A DNA stretch of 41,325 bases from a virus: IMG/VR virus record IMGVR_UViG_3300045988_032064, positions 1 through 41,325 of that record; one strand, given 5' to 3'. The position numbers and the translations under genes are program-made. The notes beneath the pieces were generated by a model that saw only the letters and a list, made by a program, of their open reading frames with translations, did not search any database and was not told where the DNA came from. This document shows positions 101-20,710 of the stretch, piece by piece (positions within the stretch are counted from its first letter, which is position 1; every line of letters starts with the position of its first letter).

Positions 101-123
101 TTGGGTGTTGGAAAGGGCAATTG

Positions 124-168: not shown

Positions 169-251
169 GGTAAAACCCGCAAAAGAACAGCGGTTTTTAT
201 ATCACAGTCGCCCCCGAGGTATAGGGGCCGAAGAAAAGGAGACTGAAAAAA

Positions 252-866: not shown

Positions 867-886
867 AATCGAAAGGAGCTGTTGAA

Positions 887-1786: not shown

Positions 1787-1839
1787 AAGCGGCCCTGACC
1801 ATTGATAACACCGCACCGGCAGCCGTGGACTTTGACGGC

Positions 1840-1992: not shown

Positions 1993-2405
1993 GCCTCTAT
2001 GAAATCCTGCGATACCTCCACGACTTCTTCCCTGGCGACCGGTGGACCTGTGCGGATGAGCCTATCAAGGACGGGCACATCACCTTCCCTGGTTTGGAAG
2101 ACGGGGACATCTACCTGATTGAGGGGAGCCGCCGGAATGATGGACTCCATGTGTACGGTAACTGGGACCTGCGAGGCGAGTCCTTGACCGGGTATGTGAC
2201 CGAGTGCCGCATACCGCCGGAGCTGCTGGCCATGGCGGATGAAATTAGCGCTTGGCAGTCAAAGCACGCTGAGGAGCTGGAAAGCCCGTATCAGTCCGAA
2301 TCTTTAGGGGAGTATTCCTACGTCAAAGCGAGCGGAAGCACCGGCGAACCAACGAGCTGGAAGACGGTATTTGGTCCCCGGCTGCGGACATGGAGGAAGC
2401 TATGA
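1965..2405 (+). CDS. Putative head-tail connector/adaptor protein
   Basis: SD aaggag. 146 aa. Called from its position between the capsid and head-closure genes. Confidence 0.5.
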   Translation: MEQKPESAVSLYEILRYLHDFFPGDRWTCADEPIKDGHITFPGLEDGDIYLIEGSRRNDGLHVYGNWDLRGESLTGYVTECRIPPELLAMADEISAWQSKHAEELESPYQSESLGEYSYVKASGSTGEPTSWKTVFGPRLRTWRKL

Positions 2406-2755
2406 GTCTACTGGACAATTTTTTGAAATATAAATGCGTCCTGATGGAGAAGAAACGCACTCCTGATGGGGCTGGCGGCTGGATCACGGAATGGACGGAA
2501 GGGGCGGAATTTGAAGCTAATATCGTCCTGGACCAGTCCCTGCAGGCCAGAGTGGCCGAAAAAGAGGGTGTTACCTCTGTTTACACCGTGATCACCAGGC
2601 GGAGCACTGTCTTGGAATTCCATGACGTTTTCAAACGTTTGTCCGACGGCACGATTTTCCGGGCAACCAGCAATGGGGCTGATAAGCAGTCCCCCAAGAC
2701 TGGCACCCTGGATATGTGCCAGGTGACAGCGGAGAGATGGGAGCTGACCCAATGA
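2402..2755 (+). CDS. Putative head-closure / head-tail joining protein
   Basis: ATGA overlap with the upstream stop and SD ggagga. Residue pattern ...DGAGGWITEWTEGAEFEANI...VYTVITRR fits head-closure proteins. Confidence 0.55.
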   Translation: MSLLDNFLKYKCVLMEKKRTPDGAGGWITEWTEGAEFEANIVLDQSLQARVAEKEGVTSVYTVITRRSTVLEFHDVFKRLSDGTIFRATSNGADKQSPKTGTLDMCQVTAERWELTQ

Positions 2756-3114
2756 CAGCGGACAAGGCCCTCCATCAGTTTTTTAACAGCTTTGGTATTC
2801 CTGCCTTCCCGGAGACAGCTGTCCCGGATAAGCAGGAAATGCCATATATCACATACTCGTTCGCCACGGCTGGATTTGATGATCTGCCGGTTGGACTGGT
2901 GGTGAACATCTGGTACAAGACCGAATCCGAGGCAGTACCCACAGCGAAGGGGATGCAAATCGGGGACGCAATAGGCCGGGAGGGCTGTCTGGTCGATATT
3001 GACGGCGGCTATATCTGGCTTACAAAAGGCTCCCCATTTTTGCGGGCCGTGCCGGATGAGGATAACACCATCAAACGGCGGAGTTTAAATATCACCGCCG
3101 AATTTTTTGTATAG
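2752..3114 (+). CDS. Putative tail completion/terminator (neck) protein
   Basis: ATGA overlap at 2752. 120 aa, immediately before the major tail gene. Confidence 0.5.
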   Translation: MTADKALHQFFNSFGIPAFPETAVPDKQEMPYITYSFATAGFDDLPVGLVVNIWYKTESEAVPTAKGMQIGDAIGREGCLVDIDGGYIWLTKGSPFLRAVPDEDNTIKRRSLNITAEFFV

Positions 3115-3129
3115 GAGGGAAAAAACTAT

Positions 3130-3690
3130 ATGTTTACTCAGATTTCGTCTGAGGCTTTCAAAAATATTCAGCGTGGAGCGGGCATGATCCTGAACAAATT
3201 TGACCCCGCAAATCCTGCAAAGCCTGCGGACGCGGACATTGTGTGCGCCACCACCGGCGGCATTCAGGCCAGCTGCGTGGCGAACTACGTTGATGACGGC
3301 GAGGACATTGACAATGTGCCAAACAACACCAAGGAACTGAAGCAGCTGGAAAGCTGGGAGTGCAAAATGAGCTTCACGATGGTAACCATGACCGCCGCCG
3401 CACTGAAGCTGGCTCTTGGCGCTGCTACCGTCAGCGGAAACAAGATTGTTCCCAAGGCCGCACTGGAAAGCACTGATTTTACCGACACGCTGTGGTGGGT
3501 TGGCGACATGGGCGACGGCGGTCTGGCCGCTATCTGCCTGAAAAATGTGCTGTCTTCCGGCGGTTTCAGTTTGCAGACCACCAAGAACGGCAAGGGCCAG
3601 GTCAGCGTGGAGCTGCTGGGCCATGTTTCCATTTCCGCACTGGACGAAGTTCCCATGGAATTCTATGTGCAGGAAAACATTGCAGCGTAA
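3130..3690 (+). CDS. Major tail protein
   Basis: SD aggaggg. 186 aa, directly upstream of the chaperone pair and the tape measure. Confidence 0.7.
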   Translation: MFTQISSEAFKNIQRGAGMILNKFDPANPAKPADADIVCATTGGIQASCVANYVDDGEDIDNVPNNTKELKQLESWECKMSFTMVTMTAAALKLALGAATVSGNKIVPKAALESTDFTDTLWWVGDMGDGGLAAICLKNVLSSGGFSLQTTKNGKGQVSVELLGHVSISALDEVPMEFYVQENIAA

Positions 3691-3702
3691 AGGAGAAAAG
3701 AC

Positions 3703-4041
3703 ATGAAATTTCTGTTTGATTTGCCCAATGAGCAGCTGCTACCCGCAACTTGCGACCTTGCCGACGCTGTGGAGCAGCTTGTCAAGGTAAGCAATATTAT
3801 GGCGCTGCGTACTCCCGTTGCAGATGGAGAAAACAAGGAAACTGTTGCAAAGCGGAATTTTAAAAAAATTTATTTCCGGCTTTGCAAAGAATACCCCAAG
3901 GAGACCGGCGCTGTGCTGGATAGGTTGTGGGTGCTGGAAGATGGCGAGAAAGCGCCGAACGCCATTGTGACGGCAAGTATTGTGCTGTTACGCAAGGACG
4001 TTATCAGTTTTTTTACATCGTTGCTTCAGCTGGCGCAGTAA
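3703..4041 (+). CDS. Tail assembly chaperone (G-like)
   Basis: SD aaaggag. 112 aa, between the major tail gene and the tape measure. A slippery site lies near its 3' end. Confidence 0.75.
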   Translation: MKFLFDLPNEQLLPATCDLADAVEQLVKVSNIMALRTPVADGENKETVAKRNFKKIYFRLCKEYPKETGAVLDRLWVLEDGEKAPNAIVTASIVLLRKDVISFFTSLLQLAQ

Positions 4042-4355
4042 GTTACCGGCGGGCGCTGTTTTCGATTCCTCCTGCGTGGTTCCCGATATGCGAATTTCGG
4101 CACATTTTGGCAAAAATCACAGATGAAATAAATCTGGAAAATCAGCGAAAGACCATCATTTGCTATTTTGCAGATGCCATTATGAGCATATCCAAGAATA
4201 CAGCAATGGTTGTGAATGGCGAATATGTGCAGACACGGTTGGCGGACCTTTTGGAACCTCCTGACAACGATAAACGGAGTGCGGAGGAGATCATTGAGGA
4301 TATAAGCGAAAAGCTGGAAAAGATTGGTGGTGAAGACAATAGCAGGTTTACTTGA
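3703..4355 (+). CDS. Tail assembly chaperone -1 frameshift fusion (GT-like)
   Basis: A -1 slip at T TTT TTT (4008-4014) joins frame 1 to the frame-0 ORF that stays open to 4355. The downstream ORF has no start codon or SD of its own. Confidence 0.65.
4008..4014 (+). promoter_or_regulatory. Slippery heptamer T TTT TTT for -1 programmed frameshifting
   Basis: The zero frame reads agT TTT TTT aca. The -1 frame continues ...FFYIVASAGAVSYRR... Confidence 0.65.
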
Positions 4356-6081
4356 TCTGTTTGTGCAAATCAGTGTAGACGATAAGGCGAGCAACAAAAT
4401 CGGGAATATCAGCAAAAAGGCAACAACTGCTTTTAGCAAGATTGGGGCTGCCGCCGGGGCCGGAATGAAACTTGCCGCAAAAGGCGCAACTGTTGCCGCT
4501 GGTGCTATTGCTACTCTGTCCACAATGGCCGTCAAAACCTATTCGAATTATGAGCAGCTTGTTGGCGGCGTAAAAACATTGTTTGGTGCCGGCGAACAAT
4601 CGTTTAACCAGTTTGCAAAAGCGTCCGGATTGCCTGTAAAGGAAGCAACGGCACAATACTCTCAAATGATGGCAGCTCAAAAAGCGGTAATGGAAAATGC
4701 AGACGAAGCGTATAAAAACGCCGGACTATCTGCAAATGACTACATGGAGACCGTTACCGGATTTGCGGCAGCCTTAAATAGCAGTTTGGGCGGAAATACT
4801 CTGAAATCCGCACAATATGCGGATATGGCCGTGAAAGACATGGCGGACAACTCAAACAAGATGGGCAGCAGCATGGAAAGTATTCAAAATGCCTATCAGG
4901 GGTTCGCCAAGCAAAACTATACCATGTTGGACAACCTGAAACTTGGCTACGGCGGCACAAAAACCGAAATGGAACGGCTGCTGGCTGAGGCAAGCAAAAT
5001 TTCCGGGAAGAAATTTGACTTATCGTCTTACGCTGATGTTGTTGAGGCAATCCACACCATTCAGACCGAGATGGGCATCACCGGGACTACGGCAGAGGAA
5101 GCCGAGCATACCATTTCCGGATCTGTGAACGCCATGAAAGCGGCATGGACAAACTGGTTGACAGGGCTAGGTAACAGCAAAGCCGACATTGGCAAATTAA
5201 CGACGCAGCTAATTGATTCCGCAAAGACTGTACTTGCAAATGTAATGCCTGTGGTTAGGCAAGTGCTTACCACACTGGGCGACGTTATCAGTAACGACGC
5301 ACCTGCAATCATCGAAGAAGGGCTTTCATATATTTTGGATGCTGCACCGCAATTGTTAGAGATGGGTGGGCAACTGATTTCTTCACTTGTCGATGGAATA
5401 ATTGCAAATTTGCCGCAAATCCTTAGTGCTGCAACGCAGCTGATAACCATGCTTTGTAACGGTATTATGGAATCTGCATCACAGATACCAGAAGCAGTTA
5501 CAGAGATTATCACGCAGCTGGTTAATTTCATTGTTGCAAATGCACCGCAATTGTTGGTGGCTGGTGTTACACTTGTCCTATCATTAATACAGGGACTAGT
5601 CAAAGCTATTCCAGATATTATACAAGCTATTCCGCAGCTTATTGACGGAATTGTGTCTGCCTTTGATAATGCTTCGTCTCAGATTTTGGGTATTGGTAGA
5701 CAAATTGTGCAAGATATTATAGATGGTATATCAAGCGCATGGGATGGCCTTGTAAGTTGGTTTAACGGTTTGTGGGATAGCCTGTTCGGCGGGAGGTCTG
5801 TAAGTGTTGGCGTAAGCTATGAAGATGGAAGTCACAGCGGGATTGGCGGACATTATGCAATCGGTACGGACTATGTCCCCTACAACGGGATGCCCGCTAT
5901 CCTACACCGAGGAGAAGCAATCCTGAACGCCCCCGAGGCTGAGGATTGGCGCAGAGGCCGGGGGCGTGGCAACAGCCAGGGGATCACCATTGTGCAGAAT
6001 ATCCAGTCCGTGCCACAGACTCCTATCCAGCTGGCGGCGGCAACACAGGCCATGTTTGAACAAGCGAGGTGGGCACTGTAA
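4324..6081 (+). CDS. Tape measure protein
   Basis: 585 aa, Ala/Gly-rich and helical, in the canonical position after the chaperone pair. The start is ambiguous (TTG 4324 or GTG 4327/4330). Confidence 0.85.
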   Translation: MVVKTIAGLLDLFVQISVDDKASNKIGNISKKATTAFSKIGAAAGAGMKLAAKGATVAAGAIATLSTMAVKTYSNYEQLVGGVKTLFGAGEQSFNQFAKASGLPVKEATAQYSQMMAAQKAVMENADEAYKNAGLSANDYMETVTGFAAALNSSLGGNTLKSAQYADMAVKDMADNSNKMGSSMESIQNAYQGFAKQNYTMLDNLKLGYGGTKTEMERLLAEASKISGKKFDLSSYADVVEAIHTIQTEMGITGTTAEEAEHTISGSVNAMKAAWTNWLTGLGNSKADIGKLTTQLIDSAKTVLANVMPVVRQVLTTLGDVISNDAPAIIEEGLSYILDAAPQLLEMGGQLISSLVDGIIANLPQILSAATQLITMLCNGIMESASQIPEAVTEIITQLVNFIVANAPQLLVAGVTLVLSLIQGLVKAIPDIIQAIPQLIDGIVSAFDNASSQILGIGRQIVQDIIDGISSAWDGLVSWFNGLWDSLFGGRSVSVGVSYEDGSHSGIGGHYAIGTDYVPYNGMPAILHRGEAILNAPEAEDWRRGRGRGNSQGITIVQNIQSVPQTPIQLAAATQAMFEQARWAL

Positions 6082-6935
6082 TGGCACTCAACAATCTTTT
6101 GAAAACATTTGTTTATAAAAATGATGACGGCGCAGCCATTACCCTCACCTATGATGGGGGCTACCTCATCAGCAAGCCCGTGGGCATTGATACCGTAAGC
6201 GTTACCATCAGCGAGGCTCAGGGCATCGGGCAGACCGGGACTACCATCCGATCTGCCAATGTGGACAGCCGCCCGGTGACCATTTCCGGCATAATCGTTG
6301 GAGACAGCCAGCCAGAGAAAAAGGAGCGGCTTATGGAGGTTGTCCGGCCTGACCTGGGCGGAAAGCTCTTTTGTGATGACTACTACCTGGAGGTCCACCC
6401 TACCGGCACGCCAACCATCGAAGCCAAGCCACGGCAGGCGAAATTCCAGTTTGCGCTCCTGGCCCCATATCCCTACTGGATGAAGGGTGAGAATGCCTAT
6501 GCCGCCCTGAGCGGCGTAGAGAAGCGGTTTAAATTCCCGTGGAATATCAGCAGGCCTTACCGGTTTGGCGAGGTGGTTACACGGCAGTTTATCACCATCC
6601 ACAACTCTGGACAGCTGGAAGTCCCGTTTACGGTTACTTTCACAGCCCTGGACGCTGTAACGAACCCGAAAATTATCGATGCCAAGACCAACAACTACCT
6701 GTTGGTGAAAAAGAGCATGGTAGCCGGTGAGCGGCTTGTGGTGGAAATCACCCACGACCGGGTATATGTCACATCCTCTGCGGATGGAGAGTGCCGTGGT
6801 GCTTTGGACATCAAATCCAAGTTCTACCGGCTGAGAGTTGGCGACAACGTCATCAAACCAGAAGCGGACAGCGGGAAAAATAATCTGAGCGTATCTATCG
6901 ACTACGCCATTGAAAAAACAGGAGTTGTGCTATGA
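6081..6935 (+). CDS. Distal tail protein (Dit-like)
   Basis: TAATG overlap with the tape measure stop, SD gaggtggg. Position immediately after the tape measure. Confidence 0.65.
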   Translation: MALNNLLKTFVYKNDDGAAITLTYDGGYLISKPVGIDTVSVTISEAQGIGQTGTTIRSANVDSRPVTISGIIVGDSQPEKKERLMEVVRPDLGGKLFCDDYYLEVHPTGTPTIEAKPRQAKFQFALLAPYPYWMKGENAYAALSGVEKRFKFPWNISRPYRFGEVVTRQFITIHNSGQLEVPFTVTFTALDAVTNPKIIDAKTNNYLLVKKSMVAGERLVVEITHDRVYVTSSADGECRGALDIKSKFYRLRVGDNVIKPEADSGKNNLSVSIDYAIEKTGVVL

Positions 6936-7993
6936 GCCTGGAAATCTACCCTGCGAACCTGCCCACCAGATATGGCCTGTATGCCGTTACCGCTATCACC
7001 ATGAGCGAGAACTATAACGATGTGGGTAAAATCTCCATCGTTGTTGCGCTGGACGACTACGCTATTACCGCCTTAAAGCCAGGAAATATCGTGTATAACA
7101 CGGACCGGGGGACCACCTATATCCTGGTAAACGTAAAGAGCGACACCACAAAGCGTCTAATAACCGCCAACGGATACACCTCCGATTGGTTGCTGAACAA
7201 GCGAGTTGTGGCGGAAAAGCGGCAAATCGTCAACATTGAGGCCGACACCTACGACCTGATCACCAAGAATCTCAGGGGCCTGAGCCGCATCGACTTAGCC
7301 CCGGTGAAAGGGTTGGCGGAGACCTTCCAGAAGGACGACCCGGAGACCGAGGACGAAGACGAAAGCGTTATCAACGGCGGCCAGCTGCTGGACCGGGTGA
7401 CGGAGGTTTTGGACTACGGAAAGCTTGGGCGGCGGATGCTGTGGGACACAGAAAAGCTGAGGTGGACCTTTGAGATATTCAAGGGCGTAGACCGCACCGA
7501 TGGTATCCATGCCGTTGCTTTCGTGGAGGAGCAAGGCACCTGTACAGACCTGGTTATCAACGAGGACGATTCTACCTTTAAAAACTACGCCTGGATAGAG
7601 TACAAGCACAACGATATAACCTACAAAACCCAGGTTGGTACAGCCAAAGGTGACGACCGGCGGGAGGTGTGGATCGGCACATCTGTGATTGCAGAGCAAA
7701 ATGAATCCCGAAAAGCCGTTAAGAAGCGGGCCGAGGAACAGGCGGCGCTTGACCTGGGCAAGTATTTAAAGCGTACAAGCTTCACGGTGACCATCGATCC
7801 GGAGGAATTTGGTGTGCGATACGACATCGGAGACACGGTTTCCTGCGTGTCTAACCGGTTCGGCGTATCCTTCCAGGCCCAGGTGACCGGCTACTCTTAC
7901 AAACTGGATAGCAACGGCGAGACCACCAGCATTGTGCTGGGCGAACCGACTTTGACGGCGATTGACGAGGTGATTTTGAAACATGGAAATTAA
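6932..7993 (+). CDS. Tail tip / Tal-position protein (Gp37-like)
   Basis: ATGA overlap, 353 aa. Position after Dit. The N-terminus is reminiscent of the siphovirus Gp37-like family (from memory). Confidence 0.55.
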   Translation: MSLEIYPANLPTRYGLYAVTAITMSENYNDVGKISIVVALDDYAITALKPGNIVYNTDRGTTYILVNVKSDTTKRLITANGYTSDWLLNKRVVAEKRQIVNIEADTYDLITKNLRGLSRIDLAPVKGLAETFQKDDPETEDEDESVINGGQLLDRVTEVLDYGKLGRRMLWDTEKLRWTFEIFKGVDRTDGIHAVAFVEEQGTCTDLVINEDDSTFKNYAWIEYKHNDITYKTQVGTAKGDDRREVWIGTSVIAEQNESRKAVKKRAEEQAALDLGKYLKRTSFTVTIDPEEFGVRYDIGDTVSCVSNRFGVSFQAQVTGYSYKLDSNGETTSIVLGEPTLTAIDEVILKHGN

Positions 7994-8867
7994 GAGCTTT
8001 CCGAACAACAAAGACGAATACCAGGGCGCTCAGGACGTTATGCGCTGGCTGCATGGGCGTACTTCCGGCGTGTTTGGGGCGGAGAATAATGCCGCTGTGA
8101 AGTCCGCCGGGGGCATGGTTGTAAGCGTCACCGACGGTGTGGGCTGGATCACCAATGCCGATGCCGACGGCGTGGTTTGGTGGAACAGTACTCAGAAGGA
8201 CAGCGGCAACCCCATAAAACTGAGCCTGTCCCCTGCTGATTCCGCCCTGGACCGGATAGACCGGATCATCGTGGAATGGAAAACCACCGGATACGCCGAC
8301 CTACCGGAAATCAAGGTACTTGCGGGTACATCCGCCATTACCGCCGTCCCCCCTGCCCTGACCAACAGCGACGCTTTGCGGCAGCTGAGCTTGGCAAGGG
8401 TTAGCATCAAGGCAGGTGCTACCAGCATCACCGCCGCTGATATCACAGACGAGCGGCTGGACCCAACCGTCTGTGGGCTGGTGACGGAGCAGGTGAAGAT
8501 TGATACAAGCGCGATGCAAGAGCAGTTTGAGGGGCTGCTATCCTCCATCCAGCAGCAGTTGGAGGAACTGCAAGGGGGTACCGCCGTTGAGCTGAAAAAG
8601 CTGCTGTTTAAAAACACCACCGTACCCGTATCCGCATTTTTGGAAAACAGCACCTACGACGCAGAAGGTTTCCCCTATCGGGCCGCCGTGGCCCTGGAAG
8701 GGGTGAATGCCTCAATGATTCCTGAGGTGGTGTACAGTGTAAAGGCCGCCGCAAATACAGATTTTGCGCCTGTGGCGGAGAGCTATAACGGCGGTATCTA
8801 CATCTATGCTGGGTCTCAGCCGGAGGAAGCTGTTGATATCCCGACAATCATCTGCTGGAAGGGGTAA
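7983..8867 (+). CDS. Putative baseplate/tail fibre protein
   Basis: 294 aa. Motif RIDRIIVEW...ITDERLDPTVCGLV followed by a coiled coil, as seen in many fibre N-terminal modules. Confidence 0.5.
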   Translation: MEIKSFPNNKDEYQGAQDVMRWLHGRTSGVFGAENNAAVKSAGGMVVSVTDGVGWITNADADGVVWWNSTQKDSGNPIKLSLSPADSALDRIDRIIVEWKTTGYADLPEIKVLAGTSAITAVPPALTNSDALRQLSLARVSIKAGATSITAADITDERLDPTVCGLVTEQVKIDTSAMQEQFEGLLSSIQQQLEELQGGTAVELKKLLFKNTTVPVSAFLENSTYDAEGFPYRAAVALEGVNASMIPEVVYSVKAAANTDFAPVAESYNGGIYIYAGSQPEEAVDIPTIICWKG

Positions 8868-10273: not shown

Positions 10274-12706
10274 ATGGCAAATCGTGTCGTCCCAGACCGG
10301 TATGGCGTGATCAATATCGGAAAATTGAAAGAGAACTTGGTTACCGAGGTGCATCTACCCGCCCCGGGATTTGCTGGCGGTAGTTACGCCGTGCTGCTGC
10401 GGCGGCCTAAGGAGGAGCAGCCATATCCCGTAACCGTGCGGCACGAGGGCGGCAACCTGGTGTGGACGGTGCAAACCGCTGACACGGCCATTGCCGGAAT
10501 GGGCAAACTGGAATGCCGGTGGTATGGCGACAACGGCGAGGTAGCCAAGAGCCAAATCTACACAGTGCGCATTACCGATGGTCTCCCTGACCCCACCGAG
10601 GCCCCGGAGGCCTGGGCGGGATTTATGCAGCAGGTTAGCCAGGACGCTGGCCGGGCGGAAAGCGCCGCTGATAATGCCGCCAAGACGCTGCAAAAGCTGG
10701 AAGACGGAATCGCCTCCGGGGATTTCCGGGGCGAGAAAGGCGAGAAGGGCGAAAAGGGCGAAAAGGGAGACCGGGGCGAGGTGGGCCAAACTGGCCCCCA
10801 GGGATTGACTGGCCCGGTTGGCCCCAAGGGCGACCCCGGCCCCCAAGGGCCGAAGGGTGAAGCTGGCCCCGCCGGTGACACCACCGCCGCTGACGCCGCG
10901 GCAGAAGCAGCAAAAAAAGCCGCCCAGGAAGCCCAGAAAGCAGCGGAAGCGTCCGCCGGTTCGGCGGCGCAGGCTGCGGAATCTGTCGGCGGGCTGGCGG
11001 ATGATCTGGAGGCCACCCAGAACGATCTTGCCAAGATGAAACGGGCTATTAAATTCCAGGCGGAACTCAATAAGGGCCAGACTTGGGACTTTGAGGAGGA
11101 CACCCAGGAGGCCTACGAGCGGCAGGTGCCCAGCGGTGCCAAGGCCGGGGCGGTGATGGAGTGGGGTGGAACGACGGTGGCGTGGAATCAGCTGTGCCAA
11201 AACGCAGAACTGGCAAGCCTTGACGGATTTATCGAAGCCAGTTTGACCGTATTAACCGTAGCCGACGGGATAATTACAGCAAATTGTAAAGGGCCTAACC
11301 CTGGTGTTAAATCAAGTGATGATAATTGTATGGCTACAATTAACCACTACTATTACATCGCAACAACTGCAAAAATCGAAGCCGGTACTAGATATTATGC
11401 ACCATACTGTAATTCGGGTGTTTTTAATGTTGATCCACGTGCAAACGGAACGGGCGATTTCGTGCGATCCAGCGTAATAGCAAAGGCAATTACATCCGGG
11501 CCAGCCAAGATTGGCAGCCGAATTGCAACAACTGATAATGGATACTATGAAGGTGTTCTCCAGATGAAACAACCTGTTTTCATCGACCTCACCCTCCTCT
11601 ACGGCTCCGGCAACGAGCCGATGGATACCAGCGATCCCCGCATTGCCCAAATCGAGGCGTATGCGGCGGCCCACCCGGAGTACAACGCCGGAGAGCTGAT
11701 GAGTGCGGAGGTGGATAGCGTGGTGGAGCAGGGCGCCAACCTCATCAGCATCCAAGCGTTACAGGCATGGTGGCCCAATGATACTGAGGTCGATGGCGAC
11801 ATCCTTTATATCAAAGGAAATGGCACAAACGGAATATACAGGAAAAGATTCCCAATCAGTATTCCTTCAGGTGCCGTAATATCCGCAGAAGGAATTGAAC
11901 CGAAATTAAACATGCGCATGAGCAAAAACGCAAGGATAGTTTTTGTTCGTCCGAATGGGACGGCTTTTAGTTACTTGTTATCTGACGCATCTTGCGCCCC
12001 CCAAAAAATAGAAAATGTGGTTATGAACAGCGACATTATAGCGCTCTATTTAGATTACAGCGAATCCAATGACTTTTTTGGCATTGCGAATTTAATGATC
12101 CGGTTGCCTTATGCCTCGCCCGATTACTCCCCCTACCATCAGACCACCCATCCCATCCCGGATGCGGTGAAACAGCTCCCCGGCTACGGCTGGAGCGCTG
12201 GCTCTGTTGCCAACACGGTGAAGCGGACAGAAAACGGCTGGCAGTATGTGCAGCGGGTGGAGAGCGTGGATTTGGGGACGCTGGATTATACCAAAGAAGA
12301 AAATACATTTCGGGCAAAAATTCAGGGCATGCGGATCGTATCAACGGACGTGGCATTTAATGGCCGCTGCAAATCGTTTATTTCCATACGCTACAGAGAT
12401 AGCTGGACCGTTGATGGGACTATGTCACAAGATACCGCGAAGAGGCTGGTGCTTATCCACAGCGGGTATAGCGACATAGCATCCTTTTTGTCCTATATCC
12501 GTGGGACCCTCCTCTATTACGAGCTGGCCGCCCCCATCACCACAGACATCACCAACCTGATGGGTGAATCTCTGGCCCCGTTCCCGGTGGAGGCTGGCGG
12601 CTCCATCACCATGCACCACCCAAAGGCGGATGAGGGCTTTGCTATAGATGTTCCCGCAAAAATCCAGTACATCACAAAACTCTCGGAGGTGAGCGCTAAT
12701 GGATAA
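10274..12706 (+). CDS. Tail fibre with collagen-like repeats
   Basis: SD aaaggagg, 810 aa. 17 G-X-Y triplets, then an Ala-rich coiled coil, then two large C-terminal modules. Confidence 0.85.
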   Translation: MANRVVPDRYGVINIGKLKENLVTEVHLPAPGFAGGSYAVLLRRPKEEQPYPVTVRHEGGNLVWTVQTADTAIAGMGKLECRWYGDNGEVAKSQIYTVRITDGLPDPTEAPEAWAGFMQQVSQDAGRAESAADNAAKTLQKLEDGIASGDFRGEKGEKGEKGEKGDRGEVGQTGPQGLTGPVGPKGDPGPQGPKGEAGPAGDTTAADAAAEAAKKAAQEAQKAAEASAGSAAQAAESVGGLADDLEATQNDLAKMKRAIKFQAELNKGQTWDFEEDTQEAYERQVPSGAKAGAVMEWGGTTVAWNQLCQNAELASLDGFIEASLTVLTVADGIITANCKGPNPGVKSSDDNCMATINHYYYIATTAKIEAGTRYYAPYCNSGVFNVDPRANGTGDFVRSSVIAKAITSGPAKIGSRIATTDNGYYEGVLQMKQPVFIDLTLLYGSGNEPMDTSDPRIAQIEAYAAAHPEYNAGELMSAEVDSVVEQGANLISIQALQAWWPNDTEVDGDILYIKGNGTNGIYRKRFPISIPSGAVISAEGIEPKLNMRMSKNARIVFVRPNGTAFSYLLSDASCAPQKIENVVMNSDIIALYLDYSESNDFFGIANLMIRLPYASPDYSPYHQTTHPIPDAVKQLPGYGWSAGSVANTVKRTENGWQYVQRVESVDLGTLDYTKEENTFRAKIQGMRIVSTDVAFNGRCKSFISIRYRDSWTVDGTMSQDTAKRLVLIHSGYSDIASFLSYIRGTLLYYELAAPITTDITNLMGESLAPFPVEAGGSITMHHPKADEGFAIDVPAKIQYITKLSEVSANG
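10730..10882 (+). repeat. Collagen-like G-X-Y coding repeat (17 triplets, includes 4x GEK 9-bp units)
   Basis: GEKGEKGEKGEKGDRGEVGQTGPQGLTGPVGPKGDPGPQGPKGEAGPAGDT read directly from the translation. Confidence 0.9.
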
Positions 12707-14239: not shown

Positions 14240-14476
14240 GTGGACCGGATCCCGTGGAACCGGGTGATTTTGGATGAATTTTGTTCCCTGGCGCTACTCA
14301 CGCCATTGGAAGAAAACATAATCCGTACCCGGGCCGCCGGATGGAGCCGTGTACAGCAGTGCCACGCTTACGGTATGTCCCTTGCCACATTAGATAGGCA
14401 CATCAGAAAGCTGCGCAAGCAATACGAGACGGTGCAGGAGTACAGCTATGTACTCCCCCGCAATATCGACTTCTGA
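14240..14476 (+). CDS. Small sigma-70 region-4/LuxR-like HTH regulator
   Basis: GTG start. LTPLEENIIRTRAAGWSRVQQCHAYGMSLATLDRHIRKLRKQY looks like a region-4 HTH. Confidence 0.5.
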   Translation: MDRIPWNRVILDEFCSLALLTPLEENIIRTRAAGWSRVQQCHAYGMSLATLDRHIRKLRKQYETVQEYSYVLPRNIDF

Positions 14477-14502
14477 CAGTTTTTTGACAACTATATGATT
14501 GT

Positions 14503-14542
14503 AAATCGGTAGGAAAACGATAGTTTTTCTACCGATTTTTTT
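14503..14542 (+). terminator. Rho-independent terminator
   Basis: 15-bp stem aaatcggtaggaaaa/tttttctaccgattt followed by a T-run. Confidence 0.8.
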
Positions 14543-14573
14543 GTTATCCTATGGGCAGAAAGGGGCGGTGCCT

Positions 14574-14954
14574 ATGGGAGCATACAGGCCATATAATCCA
14601 AACCCACGGGCTGCCAAAGTGGGCGATTGCGCCGTCCGGGCCGTAGCCAAAGCGTTAGGAATTGACTGGTATCAATCCTACATTGAGTTAGTCAACGAGG
14701 GCTTGGAGCAGTGCGACCTCCCTAGCGCAAACAATGTGTGGGGCGCTGTCCTCCGGCGGCATGGATTCCGGCGGGCGGCGATCCCAGAAGAATGCCCGGA
14801 CTGCTACACCGTGGGTGACTTTATCCGGGAACACCCGGCGGGAACCTACATTGTGGCCCTGAAAAACCACGTTGTGACCGTGGAGGACGGCGTGTTATAC
14901 GACACCTGGAACTCTATGGATGAAAACCCAATCTATTTTTGGAGGCGTGAATAA
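14574..14954 (+). CDS. Hypothetical protein with a papain-like Cys/His/Asp pattern
   Basis: SD agaaagggg. GDCAVRAVAKAL ... KNHVVTVEDGVLYDTW. First gene of the accessory operon. Confidence 0.6.
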   Translation: MGAYRPYNPNPRAAKVGDCAVRAVAKALGIDWYQSYIELVNEGLEQCDLPSANNVWGAVLRRHGFRRAAIPEECPDCYTVGDFIREHPAGTYIVALKNHVVTVEDGVLYDTWNSMDENPIYFWRRE

Positions 14955-15364
14955 TGGCGTATCCTTATCCTTACAGCGCACCATACGGGGCGCAGAGCTA
15001 TTTCCAGGTGGCACCAGGCAGCTATAGCCAACCAATGCAGATGCCGATACAGCAACCTACAGCACCAGTACAAGCCTCTCAGGCGACGCAGGACGACCGC
15101 ATCTGGGTAGCGTCCGAGTCTGCGGCAGAAGCGTTTTTTGTGGCCGCCAATGGCTTTGTACGGCTTTGGGACAGCAACAAGCCGGTATTTTACGAAAAAC
15201 GGGCCGACATGAACGGGCGGCCTATGCCGCTGGTAGCGTATGAATACAAGATACGGGATGCAAGCGCAGGACAGGAATCGGTTAGCGCCGGATTTGAGCA
15301 GCGGCTTTCCGCCGTAGAAGAAAAGCTAAAGAAAATGATGGAGGGACAGAACAATGATGCCTAA
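14954..15364 (+). CDS. Hypothetical protein, P/Q/Y-rich N-terminus
   Basis: TAATG coupling, 136 aa. Confidence 0.6.
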   Translation: MAYPYPYSAPYGAQSYFQVAPGSYSQPMQMPIQQPTAPVQASQATQDDRIWVASESAAEAFFVAANGFVRLWDSNKPVFYEKRADMNGRPMPLVAYEYKIRDASAGQESVSAGFEQRLSAVEEKLKKMMEGQNNDA

Positions 15365-15563
15365 CCCTATGCAGATGATTTCCCAATTCCCCCAGTTTAT
15401 GCAGCAGATGAGAGGCCAAGACCCCCAGCAATTGCTTAACCAGCTGGTACAGAGTGGCCGGGTGAATCAGCAGCAACTCAACCAGGCCCAGCAGATGGCA
15501 CAGCAGATGCAGGGACAGTTTGATCAATTCCGGGGAATGTTTGGTTTCGGTAACAGGCGGTAA
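15354..15563 (+). CDS. Hypothetical Gln-rich 69-aa protein
   Basis: Overlaps the upstream gene by 11 nt. 21 of 69 residues are Gln. Confidence 0.55.
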   Translation: MMPNPMQMISQFPQFMQQMRGQDPQQLLNQLVQSGRVNQQQLNQAQQMAQQMQGQFDQFRGMFGFGNRR

Positions 15564-15603
15564 CCCGCTGTTATAAATATCTTTTTTACAGGAGGAAAAC
15601 AAA

Positions 15604-16395
15604 ATGGCAATTTCCAACGAAATGGGCCCTGCTGATGTCCGAGCGTGCACCGAAGGTGCCAACGGATATGGCAACGGCATGGGCTGGGGCGGTGAATGGT
15701 TCATCTGGATCGTTCTCTTCGCTGTCCTGTTCGGCTGGGGCGGCAACGGCTGGGGCGGTGGCTTTGGTGGCCGTGGTGCTGGCGCTGGTGCTGTGGACGG
15801 CTATGTGCTGGCTTCCGACTTTTCCAACATTGAGCGGAAAATCGACAGCGTGAACAATGGCGTCTGCGACGGCTTTTATGCCATGAATACCGGAATGCTG
15901 AATGGGTTTGCTGGCGTGAACCAGAACATGAGCAACGGTTTCCAGGCGGCGGAGCTTTCCCGGTGCAACCAGCAGGCGGCTTTGATGCAACAGCTTTTCC
16001 AGATGCAGATGGCCCAGCAGCAGTGCTGCTGCGAGAACCGGGAGGCGGTCCAGGGCGTGAACTACAATCTGGCGACCCAGAGCTGTGACACCCGGAACAC
16101 CATCCAGAACACCACCCGGGACATCATCGACGCTATGAACTGCGGTTTCCGCTCCATCGACCAGCGGTTGACGGCTCAGGAAATGGCGGCAAAGGATCAG
16201 ATTATCGCTCAGCAGAACCAGAAGCTGTTTATGTCCGAGTTGGCCGCAAGCCAGAGCAACCAGAACCAGGTTCTAAAGGGCTATGTCGCCGAACAGTTCG
16301 CCTACTACAACCCCCCTGCCAGACCAGCTTATGTCGTCCCGAATCCCAACTGCTGCGGTAACGGCTACGGCTGCGGCTGCGGAAACGTGGCGTAA
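15604..16395 (+). CDS. Hypothetical Gly/Trp-rich membrane protein with 12 Cys
   Basis: SD aggagg. GWGGEWFIWIVLFAVLFGWGGNGWGGGFGG, a CCC triplet, and a C-terminal CCGNGYGCGCG. Confidence 0.7.
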   Translation: MAISNEMGPADVRACTEGANGYGNGMGWGGEWFIWIVLFAVLFGWGGNGWGGGFGGRGAGAGAVDGYVLASDFSNIERKIDSVNNGVCDGFYAMNTGMLNGFAGVNQNMSNGFQAAELSRCNQQAALMQQLFQMQMAQQQCCCENREAVQGVNYNLATQSCDTRNTIQNTTRDIIDAMNCGFRSIDQRLTAQEMAAKDQIIAQQNQKLFMSELAASQSNQNQVLKGYVAEQFAYYNPPARPAYVVPNPNCCGNGYGCGCGNVA

Positions 16396-16407
16396 GGAGG
16401 GCTGAAC

Positions 16408-16842
16408 ATGGCGGTTGAACTTACTGCAAACGCTGTCCAGGCAGTTCCGGCTGGGCAGAATGTGCTATTTACTGATACGCCGGTGAAATGTAACCGGGGG
16501 TATGTTGTTCACCGTGATGGGGCTGGCCTTGTAACCCTACGTGGACTTTGTAACGGCTGCTCCACCCTGGCCCGGTATCGGGTGCTGTTTGTGGGCAATA
16601 TCTCCGTTCCCACCGGCGGAACCGCTGGAGCTATCAGTGTGGCCCTGGCCCTGGGCGGGGAGGCGCTGCCTACCACTACGGCAACGGTTACCCCCGCCGC
16701 CGCTGGGGAAGCTTTTAACGTGGCGACTTCCGCCTTTGTGGATGTGCCCCGTAACTGCTGTGTGGCGCTGTCCGTGCGTAACATTTCCGGCCAGGCCATT
16801 GATGTTGCCAACGCCAATCTGATGATTGAGCGTGTGGCGTAA
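16408..16842 (+). CDS. Hypothetical beta-rich 144-aa protein (possibly TNF/C1q-like jelly roll)
   Basis: SD taaggaggg. Ala/Gly/Thr/Val-rich. The fold suggestion is from memory of BclA-C-terminal-like sequences and is unverified. Confidence 0.65.
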   Translation: MAVELTANAVQAVPAGQNVLFTDTPVKCNRGYVVHRDGAGLVTLRGLCNGCSTLARYRVLFVGNISVPTGGTAGAISVALALGGEALPTTTATVTPAAAGEAFNVATSAFVDVPRNCCVALSVRNISGQAIDVANANLMIERVA

Positions 16843-16857
16843 CAGGAGGTGAACAAA

Positions 16858-17232
16858 ATGAAGCATTTGGAAGATTTGCGGGATACCCTGTGCCGGGAGC
16901 TGGATGAAATCGCCGGAAAGGGCGAACTGTCCGCCGGTGCTCTCGATACCGTGGACAAGTTGGCCCACACCATCAAAAACCTGGACAAGGTGATGATGGG
17001 AGAAGGGTACAGCAGCGCCGGAGATTGGTATGCAATGGGTAACTACGGCGAACGGCCTGGATACCGGGACAGCGTGAGCTACCGGGGCCGGAAGCGGGAC
17101 AGCATGGGCCGCTACAGCCGGACCGATGCCAAGGAGGATATTGCCGACAAGCTGCGGCGCATGATGGATGATGCGCCTGACAGCAGAACCCGGGAGGCTT
17201 TAGACAAGGCCCTCCGGTGCATGGAGGAATAA
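16858..17232 (+). CDS. Hypothetical protein, helical ends and an R/S/Y/G-rich centre
   Basis: ATG 8 nt after AGGAGG, 124 aa. Confidence 0.65.
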   Translation: MKHLEDLRDTLCRELDEIAGKGELSAGALDTVDKLAHTIKNLDKVMMGEGYSSAGDWYAMGNYGERPGYRDSVSYRGRKRDSMGRYSRTDAKEDIADKLRRMMDDAPDSRTREALDKALRCMEE

Positions 17233-17235
17233 CGG

Positions 17236-17562
17236 ATGCTTACAGAGCGGGATTTGCTGGAAACCATAGAAGAGTGCAAAGCGGTACGGCGGCCCACGGC
17301 CTCCACTTGCCAGCTGATGGCCTCTTGCTATACCATCCTGGATCATCTATTCCCGGATGCTCCCCGCTCTGCCGATCCTGCCCCTGTACAAATGTATTCC
17401 ATGTCCCCACAACCGGTAGACACCGGCGGAAGCGAGTTTGTCCAGACGGCCAGAAAAGCCGGGATTTCCCGGCTTCTGGACGTGCTGGATGAACACATGG
17501 ATTGCATCCAGGCAATGTACCCCAAAGAGTATGCCGCTATCCTGCGGCGGCTGAGAGAATAA
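17236..17562 (+). CDS. Hypothetical protein
   Basis: SD ggagga, 108 aa. Last gene before the terminator. Confidence 0.65.
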   Translation: MLTERDLLETIEECKAVRRPTASTCQLMASCYTILDHLFPDAPRSADPAPVQMYSMSPQPVDTGGSEFVQTARKAGISRLLDVLDEHMDCIQAMYPKEYAAILRRLRE

Positions 17563-17577
17563 AGTATACTTGCAATA

Positions 17578-17614
17578 TTCCCCGGGAAAGATTCGTTTCC
17601 CGGGGAATTATTTG
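17578..17614 (+). terminator. Rho-independent terminator
   Basis: Perfect 12-bp stem ttccccgggaaa/tttcccggggaa with a 6-nt loop, then ttatttg. Confidence 0.8.
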
Positions 17615-17635: not shown

Positions 17636-17664
17636 TTGACAATCCACCCAATGAGTGGTATAAT
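17636..17664 (+). promoter_or_regulatory. Consensus sigma-70-type promoter
   Basis: TTGACA, 17-nt spacer, TATAAT, preceded by TGg (extended -10). Confidence 0.7.
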
Positions 17665-17946: not shown

Positions 17947-18240
17947 ATGGAAAACGTTATCATCGCATCATTTGACTCTTTCAACCAGCGCCGCTACTCC
18001 GCCCCATGGATTGCCAAGTTTGCAGCCGGAAAGTATGATTTTAAAACCCATGTTGGAATGTACACCGGCAACAGCAGAGACGGCGAAGCCGGTGACCTTG
18101 TGGTCTTCTCCCCTGAAGAAGGCCAGATTTACGCCTATGGGCAGAAGGACTACCGAGGAAATAACACAAAGCTTTGCTTTGCGATCTGGCAGAACGGTGG
18201 GTTCACCCCCTGCGATAAGCTGGGGCGGCCTAAAGAGTGA
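17947..18240 (+). CDS. Hypothetical protein
   Basis: SD gaaagg, 97 aa. Confidence 0.6.
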   Translation: MENVIIASFDSFNQRRYSAPWIAKFAAGKYDFKTHVGMYTGNSRDGEAGDLVVFSPEEGQIYAYGQKDYRGNNTKLCFAIWQNGGFTPCDKLGRPKE

Positions 18241-18246
18241 GAAAAA

Positions 18247-18266
18247 GCCCGCCGAAACCGGCGGGC
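18247..18266. other. GC-rich hairpin (possible terminator)
   Basis: gcccgccg-aaac-cggcgggc. The A-run is upstream, so the U-tract is only on the - strand reading. Confidence 0.4.
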
Positions 18267-18399
18267 CTCTCCTGGAGCATCAACTCTCGCTGATTCATCC
18301 ATTTGCTTTTAAGCATTTATTTTTCAATCCACTCCCGTTTCTGGGAGACACCTGCAGTTTATCACGGCGAACGCCGAAAGTCAATAGGAGGAATTTTTT

Positions 18400-18729
18400 A
18401 TGAAAGCTATGGTAGCCATCGTAAGCAGTGGTTTCGGCAATGTCCCCAACAAAACCTTGATTTATCGCCCAGAAGATTCTGAGAATGTTGAGTTCCAGTT
18501 CCTGGATCTTGTGTGGGATGCCCTTGAGGTGGAATTCCCAGATTCGTTCCAGTTTTTAGAGTGTATGGATGGAGAGTATCGTCTTTTCGACGGTCGTGGG
18601 GAATTACTTGAGGCTTTTAACTATCCAGGGGAGTCGATCATTTCCTTTGTTGCCAAATATAGCGATCGAGATGTGCGGATAACCGATGGAAAAGGCGTGT
18701 TCGGGTCGGACAGAGGCTTTACAAAATGA
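18400..18729 (+). CDS. Hypothetical protein
   Basis: SD aggagg, 109 aa. Confidence 0.65.
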   Translation: MKAMVAIVSSGFGNVPNKTLIYRPEDSENVEFQFLDLVWDALEVEFPDSFQFLECMDGEYRLFDGRGELLEAFNYPGESIISFVAKYSDRDVRITDGKGVFGSDRGFTK

Positions 18730-19043
18730 TGGACGCCACCTTTACCGCCGTCCTCCGCCTATGGGAACAGGATCTATCCCAAAAAGAGATAGCCCGCCGC
18801 CTGAATCTCTCTGAGCAAAAGGTCCGCCGGATACTTGTAACCGCCGGGGCTATCCAGACGGAGGAATCCAGGCTCCACTCCCAGGGGCAAACCGTCGAGG
18901 AAATTGCCGCCGCACTTGGTAAAACTGTTAAGGCTGTGCAAGCCCGCATCCCCTACGATAAGGGCATGTACAACGCCGAGTACCCCACCATCAACGCCCT
19001 GCGCATCCGCAAAACCCGTAAAAAGAAAGGAAGCAAAAAATGA
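18726..19043 (+). CDS. HTH DNA-binding protein
   Basis: ATGA overlap. LSQKEIARRLNLSEQKVRRIL and a second unit TVEEIAAALGKTVKAVQARI. Confidence 0.6.
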   Translation: MMDATFTAVLRLWEQDLSQKEIARRLNLSEQKVRRILVTAGAIQTEESRLHSQGQTVEEIAAALGKTVKAVQARIPYDKGMYNAEYPTINALRIRKTRKKKGSKK

Positions 19044-19342
19044 CAAGAGAATACTTTTCACAGCTGATTGCCGAACTAGAAACCATCAGCGACCTGCCTG
19101 CATACTACGCAGAGACCGGCGGTTTCCGTTGCAGCGTAGATCGTCGGAACGCCTACACCGCATTCACACGCCCCTTCCGGGAGATCGTAAACTACACTGG
19201 CTTGAGCCAAGCCAAGTTCGCAAGACTCTACAACATCCCACGTCGCACCGTGGAAAACTGGTGCAGTGGCTCCAGAGAGTGCCCGCTGTACACCAGCCTC
19301 CTCTTACAAGAAGCTATTGGGCTGATTTCTTTTAGCAACTGA
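19040..19342 (+). CDS. HTH (XRE-like) protein
   Basis: ATGA overlap. GLSQAKFARLYNIPRRTVENWCSGSRECP. Confidence 0.6.
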   Translation: MTREYFSQLIAELETISDLPAYYAETGGFRCSVDRRNAYTAFTRPFREIVNYTGLSQAKFARLYNIPRRTVENWCSGSRECPLYTSLLLQEAIGLISFSN

Positions 19343-19603: not shown

Positions 19604-20710
19604 TTATTTTTCGTTTCCATTTGCGTTGCCAATTTGGCGGTTTTTAATGGCCTCTGGGGCAAAATAGTCAGTGAATTCACGGGAACGTTTGGCGATATCC
19701 TGTTCCGCCAAATGGGTATATATTTTGTGCATAGTCCCCAAATCTTTCCACCCGCCGATCTCCGCCGCCATCATCTCCGGGATGCCCATATGGTAGGCCA
19801 GCGAGGCGAAGCTATGGCGCAGACCGTGCATACCGACTTCCGGAAGGCTGTTTTCTTGGCATATCTTGTTGATGTGCTTAAACAGTGTACACGTGGCGGC
19901 GTTGACAACAAATTCTGAATCCTTTGGGGCCGCCATAAGTGCATCGTAAAGGGGCGGGATCATAGGCACCGGGCGGCGGGATTTTTTGGTTTTGTTCTGC
20001 GGCTTTAGCTTCAGCCCGTCCTCCCCTCTCACTTTAGCGCCACGAACATAGATTGCACGGTTTGCAAAGTCCACATTTTTCCAGGTGAGGCCCAGCATTT
20101 CAGAGCGGCGGAGGCTGGACAGGCACAGGAGCGCCGGTATCTCAATGGGCTGGCCCTTTACGGCCTCTACAAAGATATCAATCTGTTCCGGCTCCAGGAA
20201 GGGACGCTCATTCTCTTCCTTCTCGAAAAGCACCACTTCCGGTTGCCTGCCTGTTTCTTTTTTGATAGCCGCCGACATGAGGCCCCAGGCGTTCTTGATG
20301 TACTTAGAGGAACGGCCCAGCTTCTTTTCCTCGTCAATGGCTTGCTGCCAACGTTGATCTGGTGTCGTGTACACGTTGTATCGCATAGCAGATTGAAATG
20401 TGTTATTTCGATAGCGGATATAGCCGTATACCGTGGATGGAGACCGCCTCCCACGGCGCACCAGGTCCCTGGTGCTGTCGATGTAAGCGTCCACCGCCTC
20501 CCCCAGTGTCACCCGGTTCTGCCCTCCCTGGCTCTTGGATTCCATCACGCCGCTTTTCACGGCCAGGTACTCTGCCACGCATTCTTCGGAGCTATCCTTT
20601 GTGATGGACACCCGGCGGCCATCCACCAGTACCCTGGTGTGCCACGCCCCGGAAGGAAGCTGCTCAATCTTGGGCAGGCGGATATCCGGTGCTTTCTTTT
20701 TTCTTCCCAT
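19604..20710 (-). CDS. int: Tyrosine integrase
   Basis: 368 aa. LSSLRRSE, HGLRHSFAS and IYTHL form the catalytic R...HxxR...Y pattern. Adjacent to the tRNA fragment. Confidence 0.9.
   Translation of the reverse strand: MGRKKKAPDIRLPKIEQLPSGAWHTRVLVDGRRVSITKDSSEECVAEYLAVKSGVMESKSQGGQNRVTLGEAVDAYIDSTRDLVRRGRRSPSTVYGYIRYRNNTFQSAMRYNVYTTPDQRWQQAIDEEKKLGRSSKYIKNAWGLMSAAIKKETGRQPEVVLFEKEENERPFLEPEQIDIFVEAVKGQPIEIPALLCLSSLRRSEMLGLTWKNVDFANRAIYVRGAKVRGEDGLKLKPQNKTKKSRRPVPMIPPLYDALMAAPKDSEFVVNAATCTLFKHINKICQENSLPEVGMHGLRHSFASLAYHMGIPEMMAAEIGGWKDLGTMHKIYTHLAEQDIAKRSREFTDYFAPEAIKNRQIGNANGNEK

Follow-up and report, generated by a model that had tools for sequence, protein, structure and literature searches.

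The seven consecutive genes found at positions 14574-17562 of the virus record IMGVR_UViG_3300045988_032064 constitute a phage accessory cargo cassette, and this gene set is undescribed in any known system. The stretch of this record that was analysed, 41,325 nucleotides in length, is referred to as the window; the seven open reading frames (ORFs) are named O1 to O7, and the small helix-turn-helix (HTH) gene upstream of them is named O0. The cassette is a self-contained, horizontally mobile accessory unit found in tailed phages that infect Clostridia of the gut and rumen and, in the reading favoured here, does not belong to the virion, lysis, replication or lysogeny-control machinery. With regard to function, the reading that we tentatively favour is that the cassette products form a membrane-associated, non-essential accessory assembly that would be made late, would remain outside the virion and would be aimed at the host envelope or at competitors.

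Judged from the number of their relatives in large protein collections, the seven ORFs are real genes and not chance ORFs, since O5 has 641 relatives, O1 has 1705 and the O4 family comprises 1334 cluster representatives at 50% identity. The initial annotation, made from the letters of the sequence, had recognised no phage function in any of the products, and comparisons with Pfam, NCBIfam, PADLOC, PHROGs and the sequences of the PDB assigned none of them to a known family of virion, lysis, replication or lysogeny proteins. Pfam, NCBIfam and PADLOC returned nothing significant for O1-O7, and neither did searches of PDB sequences with the single sequences and, for O1, O2, O4, O5, O6 and O7, with profiles. 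Six of the seven proteins have a counterpart in PHROGs (phrog_3754, 21718, 22984, 16490, 20016 and 28802), in all cases of 'unknown function', and every name found on relatives of these proteins is 'hypothetical protein'. A literature search revealed no paper describing this gene set.

Conservation of the cassette as a unit

The gene order O1-O2-O3-O4-O5-O6(-O7) was detected by tblastn in the cultured Butyrivibrio virus Ceridwen, in Dulem viruses 33 and 35 and in several human-faecal phage contigs. A pattern scan with a diverse alignment, in which each species was represented by one genome, detected relatives of O5 at 109 loci, 80 of which were kept; an earlier scan of genome contigs with a shallow alignment had found no loci. 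The 80 kept loci come mostly from Oscillospiraceae, Lachnospiraceae and Ruminococcus, with a Dysosmobacter metagenome-assembled genome as the closest scanned relative (83% identity), and gene order is conserved in almost all of them. Since the collinear order recurs in the phages and in most of the 80 loci, and since O2 is confined to cassette-bearing phages, the cassette can be regarded as a unit. The seven genes had been proposed as a set from this one genome, and, far from never co-occurring elsewhere, they are found, with their order conserved, in over 80 other genomes.

O4 and O5 are the invariable core of the cassette, with O5 always beside O4. A divergent sub-lineage carries genes of ~170 and ~78 amino acids (aa) before O4-O5 and genes of ~210 and ~110 aa after them. 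The translations of one such locus, a prophage of Lachnospira intestinalis CLA-AA-H89B (L062), identify the flanking genes as divergent O2, O3 and O6, and, judged from its position, the gene of ~110 aa would be O7. At 7421-8000 of this locus, the prophage end abuts a 162-aa ORF which resembles the C-terminal part of a sporulation-type sigma-70-family factor and adjoins a YlmC/YmxH-like gene; as read from the translations, the prophage may sit in a sigma-factor gene, like the skin element.

Two genomic positions and replacement by other cargo

The cassette occupies two positions. In the first, found in the window, in L089-L092, in Dulem virus 33 and in others, it follows the endolysin and holin genes and precedes an integrase gene on the reverse strand. 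In the second, found in at least ten loci, it lies between the portal-MuF genes and the scaffold-major capsid genes. In both contexts the cassette is located downstream of late genes and on the same strand. In one locus of the second kind (L005), the ATG of O1 overlaps the stop codon of MuF, and the + strand from MuF to the scaffold gene contains a single terminator-like site, weak and inside O4, with none separating the cassette from MuF. Because of the start/stop overlap and of the lack of any terminator other than this weak site, the cassette of L005 is very likely co-transcribed with the late head genes.

A sibling set was assembled from IMG/VR relatives fetched by the window endolysin. 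These share a backbone of endolysin, holin, HTH gene (O0), cargo slot and integrase. The cassette fills the slot in seven relatives, plus one in which only O1 was detected, and in at least seven others the same slot carries an unrelated three-gene cargo, the holin and the HTH gene of these relatives being 69-84% and 43-83% identical to those of the window, respectively. Since siblings with the same backbone carry unrelated cargo in the slot, the cassette is dispensable; it is swappable cargo, mobile as a unit between the two positions. The three-gene cargo was also considered as a homologue of O4, O6 or O7, and hhalign shows no profile similarity. This alternative cargo (L094 9618-10756; L096 9815-10977) is likewise uncharacterised, and encodes a protein of 149-156 aa with a Gly-rich hydrophobic N-terminus and a coiled coil, a second protein of 110 aa and a third of 102 aa, which has a weak match of the rubrerythrin/ferritin-like kind (E = 0.0016).

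This arrangement recalls the morons and conversion hotspots of temperate phages, such as the lysis-att junction of Gram-positive siphophages: the cassette likewise lies in a fixed slot between lysis genes and integrase, with terminators on both sides, and is likewise present, absent or replaced among sibling phages. Unlike these, it comprises seven co-adapted genes and not one or two, no promoter of its own was found, and another lineage has it within the late head operon; it is also present in Ceridwen. The latter phage, in which the cassette genes are all annotated as hypothetical, has been seen only in the lytic cycle (PMC7372960). It has no annotated integrase, and its carriage of the cassette indicates that the cassette is not tied to lysogeny.

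A prophage-expressed system for lysogenic conversion or anti-phage defence, with O4 as a membrane effector or exclusion protein and O1 and O5 as sensor or activator, is in our assessment unlikely. The canonical slot next to integrase/att with its alternative cargos, the terminators on both sides, the presence of a methylase near the cassette in another lineage (see below) and the encoding of a membrane protein together with a putative protease all fit such a system. However, there is no PADLOC match and no promoter before O1, the cassette is fused into the late head operon in the second context, and Ceridwen carries it. Additionally, low-complexity Q-rich proteins and a TNF-fold adaptor are, to our knowledge, atypical of known defence systems. 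The lysogenic-conversion idea put forward in the initial annotation was half right, in that the cassette can be dispensed with and occupies, between the lysis genes and the integrase, a slot in which cargos are swapped.

The O4-O5 junction is an insertion hotspot within the cassette, as seen from a methylase gene in one locus and from extra genes in others. The cassette in the chromosome of Lachnospiraceae JLR.KK009 (CP143549), located in the head operon, has a gene for a C5 cytosine DNA methylase (PF00145, E = 2.9e-58) between O4 and O5 (L045 8819-9934), and in other loci this junction contains extra genes of 70-110 aa or 210-370 aa. The inserted methylase also indicates that the head-operon region accepts unrelated cargo.

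This last point bears on the possibility that the cassette is a virion add-on, in which O5 trimers would decorate the capsid or cap a fibre, O4 would be a coiled-coil fibre or an ejected, membrane-inserting protein that acts on the target membrane through its Gly/Trp-rich hydrophobic segment, and the remaining products would be chaperones. The position between MuF and the scaffold/major capsid genes in at least ten loci, with translational coupling to MuF, speaks for this reading; fibres, spikes and whiskers of phages commonly contain TNF-like domains, and the cassette products, like virion proteins, lack signal peptides. Decoration proteins, moreover, are often dispensable. We nevertheless consider this reading rather unlikely, given that the cassette is missing from siblings with the same backbone, that in the window lineage the lysis cassette and a strong conserved terminator separate it from the structural genes, and that the L045 methylase shows the head-operon site to take non-structural cargo. 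Furthermore, the proteins have no homology to any known virion protein, with PHROG matches all of 'unknown function', and O5 has no N-terminal anchor extension.

The core proteins O4 and O5

O5 (phrog_20016, E = 4e-49) is predicted by AlphaFold2 (AF2) to be an all-beta protein, with a predicted local distance difference test (pLDDT) score of 87 and a predicted template modelling score of 0.83. In Foldseek searches of the PDB with this model, the top match was BxpB (8d02; E = 1.5e-7, template modelling (TM) score 0.73), followed by ExsFA, the ExsF/F-Anchor complex, F-BclA and BclA C-terminal domains (TM 0.68-0.74) and, at lower ranks, by TNF-family ligands, Pgp3 and phage fibre knobs. The guess of the initial annotation that O5 resembles small TNF/C1q-type jelly rolls such as that of BclA was thus correct at the level of the modelled fold, at an identity of 13-16%. 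Sequence membership was not detected in Pfam (E <= 1), NCBIfam or the PDB, with either the single sequence or a profile. Among the aligned homologues, Cys117-Cys118 are invariant and Cys51 is present in at least 90%. The closest models in BFVD belong to small phage proteins that stand alone, some of them named 'BclA protein', from uncultured Caudoviricetes (A0A8S5U2A1, A0A8S5S925 and others). These are similar in size to O5 (130-145 aa), share its fold (TM 0.78-0.85) and are all derived from phage metagenomes; being equally uncharacterised, they add no function for O5.

O4 (phrog_16490, E = 1e-34) is the only one of the seven proteins with a hydrophobic segment of transmembrane grade, in agreement with its early description as a membrane protein. 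This single Trp-flanked segment of ~16-18 aa lies between Gly-rich stretches and is preceded by an acidic N-tail of ~30 aa (mean 0.5 K+R vs 3.1 D+E), so that the positive-inside rule modestly predicts an N-out/C-in topology. The C-terminal domain is Q-rich and helical and bears a CCC motif, which is found in 154 of 161 relatives; at least three Cys lie within the last 16 residues in 129 of the 161. The composition of O4 had been given exactly in the initial annotation with regard to its 12 Cys, the CCC triplet and the CCGNGYGCGCG tail, as had the 21 Gln among the 69 aa of O3; O4 also contains 35 Gly and 5 Trp. Roughly half of the relatives (~74-93 of 161) have a Pro-rich motif of the PxPIPAYxVPNP type, PxP[IV]P[AS][YF]xVxNP, ~25 aa from the C-terminus. 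When 85 diverse O4 relatives were compared with Pfam and NCBIfam for domain fusions, the result was noise and one chimeric CoaBC gene call.

Two further likenesses of O4 were considered and set aside. Kinship of its N-terminus with YjcZ-like sporulation proteins has no support in NCBIfam. Residues ~30-110 gave sub-threshold matches (E ~0.05-0.5) to the N-terminal fusion-peptide/helix region of influenza HA2, which were judged compositional and were not used. These matches were obtained both with the single sequence and with an 85-sequence profile (profile E ~0.05-0.08), and cover the Gly/Trp-rich hydrophobic segment and the coil that follows it; as a parallel in architecture they are still curious.

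The closest described parallel to the core is the ExsFA/BxpB-BclA anchoring system of the exosporium in the Bacillus cereus group (8d02, 7r1m, 9h3d, 1wck). In this system, filament proteins have Pro-rich leader peptides, which the ExsF trimer binds in the clefts between its subunits (PMC12357932). O5 shares the stand-alone TNF/C1q-like jelly roll of ~140-150 aa, O4 has a conserved Pro-rich motif that can be compared with the leaders bound by ExsF, and both sets of proteins are made without signal peptides in a cytoplasm that later lyses. On the other hand, O5 has the low identity given above and no Pfam or NCBIfam membership, the cassette lacks a collagen-like partner, an exosporium-leader match and an ExsY/CotY homologue, it is encoded by phages, some of them infecting hosts that are not known to form spores, and the putative partner of O5 is a membrane protein. 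The cassette hence resembles the ExsFA/BxpB-BclA pair at the level of fold and logic only, and differs from it in sequence, partner and context.

The initial annotation had gone further and suggested an extracytoplasmic or spore-surface structure, in which coat-like proteins of phage origin, ExsFA/BclA-like, Cys-rich and Gln-rich, would be assembled on the surface of spores. The top structural matches of O5 are indeed exosporium proteins, the Cys-rich O4, the Gln-rich O3 and the putative papain-fold enzyme recall ExsY/CotY, GerQ and Tgl/YabG, and the L062 prophage adjoins a truncated sporulation-type sigma gene. The spore-surface reading is unlikely, and in our estimate very much so, because no signal peptides were found in O1-O7 (nor a hydrophobic N-terminus in O1, O2, O3, O5, O6 or O7), because the hosts include Dysosmobacter, Subdoligranulum and Butyrivibrio, which are not known to form spores, because Ceridwen, seen only in its lytic cycle, is a carrier, and because none of the proteins belongs in sequence to BclA_C or any sporulation family, the likeness being one of fold (13-16% identity). 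The predicted N-out/C-in orientation of O4 and the late-operon contexts, including the embedding in the head operon of another lineage, also speak against it.

The same features can be read in terms of extracellular factors freed by phage lysis, namely an adhesin, lectin, matrix component or toxin, with O5 for example as a glycan-binding TNF-like lectin and O4 as a membrane-active peptide-like toxin, comparable to late-operon toxins and to PblA/PblB of Streptococcus phage SM1. In favour of this, the cassette immediately follows the holin and endolysin genes and the conserved terminator, signal peptides are missing, TNF-like folds include the lectin BC2L-C and the secreted Pgp3, and the Cys-rich, Gly/Trp-rich O4 recalls a bacteriocin-like composition. 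This is quite improbable, however, since the proteins have no homology to toxin, bacteriocin or lectin families, no immunity gene could be identified, and O4, with its 263 aa and a conserved large helical domain, is unlike small bacteriocins.

The putative papain-fold protein O1 and the remaining products

O1 matches phrog_3754 (E = 4.6e-33). The papain-like Cys/His pattern noticed in the initial annotation was borne out and can be extended by an Asp: Cys19, His99 and Asp110, which have the canonical papain-like order of catalytic-type residues, are invariant, together with a CPDC motif, among 75 homologues of 53-87% identity. The AF2 model has a pLDDT of 94. Its best Foldseek match in the PDB, although weak, is Josephin-2 (E = 0.053, probability 0.89, TM 0.49), with weaker matches to the PaTox protease domain, Tae4, an NlpC/P60 endopeptidase and M48 USP, and coherent structural matches are limited to Cys peptidases and amidases. 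Among curated peptidase families, O1 has no Pfam or NCBIfam match. As in papain-like (clan CA-type) Cys peptidases and amidases such as Josephin, NlpC/P60, Tae4 and C39-like enzymes, the Cys of the modelled O1 is placed at a helix start and the His and Asp on the following beta strands, whereas O1 is much smaller (126 aa), has the extra invariant CPDC motif and gives weak scores. O1 is thus probably a minimal papain-like enzyme, which might act as a protease, as an amidase or in a transglutaminase-like manner.

The O1 family is also found as a stand-alone protein in Bacillus Tsamsa-like phages (as 'putative peptidase'), in Geobacillus GBK2 and in Lak megaphages. A role of O1 as a C39-type enzyme cleaving a double-glycine leader in the O4 N-tail, 'SLADIAAVTG(G/N)', was rejected, as O1 is missing from some of the cassettes with this motif (L004, L062), and a second class of N-tail occurs in O1-bearing cassettes.

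With regard to the other products, O2 matches phrog_21718, and its alignments show the core IWVxGExGAKxYxVxxxxxVxLxDSExxxFYxKxxDxxGxP. O3 matches phrog_22984 (E = 7e-19) and is conserved in its position within the cassette, O6 matches phrog_28802 (E = 5e-9) and has the centre ..SYRGRxRDSMGRYSR.., and O7, detected in about a third of the loci, has the motif YGDSEF...MDELMxTL. Relatives with known structure or function were not detectable for O2, O3, O6 or O7, and divergent homologues of these four proteins had no match in Pfam.

A possible assembly in the infected cell

The reading that we favour, a late membrane-associated assembly, can be outlined as follows. O4 would insert in the cytoplasmic membrane, exposing its short acidic N-tail on the outer side and keeping its long Q-rich, helical, Cys-bearing domain in the cytoplasm. 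O5 would form an ExsF/BxpB-like trimer of the TNF fold and, by analogy with the binding of the exosporium leaders of BclA and F-Anchor by ExsF, could dock the Pro-rich C-terminal motif of O4, so that an O5 trimer would cap a stalk of O4 tethered to the membrane. One of the components, for which the Gln-rich O2, O3 or O4 are candidates, would be processed or cross-linked by O1, and O2, the Gln/Met-rich O3 and the helical O6 and O7 might be partners or chaperones. A cytoplasmic location is predicted for all of these products apart from the N-tail of O4. The position of the cassette downstream of late genes in both contexts suggests that the assembly would be produced late, and its role would be accessory because the cassette is optional and resides in a swap slot. 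The most plausible functions would be exclusion of superinfecting phages or modulation of release.

Several observations weigh against this proposal. The annotated homologues assign no function to the cassette, and the docking of O4 and O5 is drawn by analogy only. O4 has no NCBIfam match at E <= 1, and hence no exosporium-leader (TIGR03720) signal, and NCBIfam gave no match relevant to such leaders for the other six proteins either; the topology of O4 depends on a modest charge bias. The fold matches of O1 are weak (E = 0.053), and some cassettes, such as that of L062, lack O1. The timing of expression is taken from gene order, there being no sigma-70-like promoter between 14476 and 14574. 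In PADLOC-DB 2.0, O4 has a chance-level match to PD-T4-6 (E = 0.099) and the other proteins have none, which lends no support to a role in defence. Lastly, a virion add-on would be equally consistent with the embedding in the head operon and with the presence of TNF-like folds in the fibres of phages. The more specific proposal of a new class of phage accessory system, with an O4-O5 assembly resembling the exosporium nap anchor that would act in the infected cell and be matured by O1 and Gln/Met-rich partners, and in which the O5 trimer would capture the Pro-rich, Cys-rich tail of a membrane-anchored, coiled-coil O4, is speculative and we hold it as doubtful.

Organisation of the locus and its putative control element

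The seven same-strand ORFs are located where the initial annotation had placed them (Table 1), and the TAATG overlap of O1 and O2 and the 11-nt overlap of O2 and O3 are both real. Every gene has a GGAGG-type Shine-Dalgarno (SD) site, situated 7-9 nt upstream of O1-O5 and O7, and the start of O6 alone needs correcting. Here, an AGGAG abuts the GTG at 16849 and lies 9 nt from the ATG at 16858, and this spacing makes the ATG probably the true start. The terminators reported on both sides of the cassette were confirmed, with 16 pairs at 14503-14538 followed by a T-run upstream, and 13 pairs downstream.

Table 1. Genes and control signals of the cassette and its immediate flanks (window coordinates).
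Feature	Position	Strand	Description
O0	14240-14476		Small HTH gene, 78 aa, directly upstream of O1
Direct repeats TGACAG/TGACAA/TGATTG	14474-14501	+	Read from sequence
Terminator/attenuator hairpin and T-run	14503-14545	+	Directly 5' of the cassette
O1	14574-14954	+	126 aa, modelled papain fold; often present but optional first cassette gene
O2	14954-15364	+	136 aa; P/Q/Y-rich N-terminus, conserved beta-rich core, helical tail
O3	15354-15563	+	69 aa; Gln/Met-rich (30% Q, 13% M), probably helical
O4	15604-16395	+	263 aa; predicted bitopic membrane protein; core gene
O5	16408-16842	+	144 aa; modelled stand-alone TNF/C1q-like jelly roll; core gene
O6	16858-17232 (ORF opens with GTG at 16849)	+	Helical, R/S/Y/G-rich centre
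O7	17236-17562	+	108 aa, probably helical; last gene
Cassette-closing terminator	17577-17608	+	13 pairs
Promoter TTGACA-17 nt-TATAAT with upstream TG	17636-17664		Directly past the cassette terminator

In front of the cargo slot, three direct repeats with an 11-nt period, the first of which overlaps the stop codon of O0, precede the hairpin. The relatives (L093-L115) have 2-4 TGAC(G/A)A direct repeats with a period of 10-11 nt before the hairpin, whatever cargo follows. In the hairpin itself (15-16 bp), 11 of 15 pairs keep their pairing through compensatory changes in 10 relatives, and the T-run and the following G(T/C)TAT motif are also conserved independently of the cargo. This repeat-hairpin element looks like a conserved and possibly regulated terminator or attenuator that guards the cargo slot, and the 78-aa HTH protein O0, for which only weak HTH matches were found (E = 0.01-0.02), may be a candidate regulator of it. 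The gene had been pointed out as a sigma-like neighbour of the operon; it belongs instead to the phage backbone, as it is retained in relatives whose slot holds other cargo.

The lysis cassette described upstream was confirmed, with an endolysin comprising PG_binding_1 and Peptidase_M15_3 domains and a Dp-1-type holin. The promoter past the cassette terminator is a perfect sigma-70 consensus and marks the start of the next unit; the small genes at 17947-19342, among them two for HTH proteins, are presumably transcribed from it. Downstream of the cassette there are HTH genes, a tyrosine integrase gene (19604-20710, reverse strand) and repressor-like genes. Since MuF is found at the end of the window, and the scaffold gene and a likely major capsid gene (unannotated) at its start, the window seems to represent a complete, circularly permuted genome of a temperate siphophage of ~41 kb. 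A DNA search among GenBank phages for close relatives of the head genes found none. Positions 10274-12706 of the window hold an 810-aa collagen-like tail-fibre gene, and the close relatives L089-L091 differ at the corresponding place. In these relatives, positions 1-6350, just upstream of the endolysin, encode a giant protein of >3200-3780 aa with ART-PolyVal (PF18760).

Implications for phages of gut Clostridia

The cassette is a widespread multi-gene block of 'dark matter' in phages of the dominant gut and rumen Firmicutes (Oscillospiraceae, Lachnospiraceae and Ruminococcus). As optional cargo that stays intact while moving between positions, it should confer a selectable advantage, and its identification would provide an annotation for hundreds of phage genomes in one step. 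The question is tractable, as the cassette is carried by the cultured phage Ceridwen and by the cultured lysogens Lachnospiraceae JLR.KK009 and Lachnospira intestinalis CLA-AA-H89B. In this group of phages, expression of the cargo may generally be controlled at the repeat and terminator element that precedes the slot. If the proposed assembly is real, it would represent, for instance, a new form of superinfection exclusion or envelope remodelling, spread across the phages of gut Clostridia.

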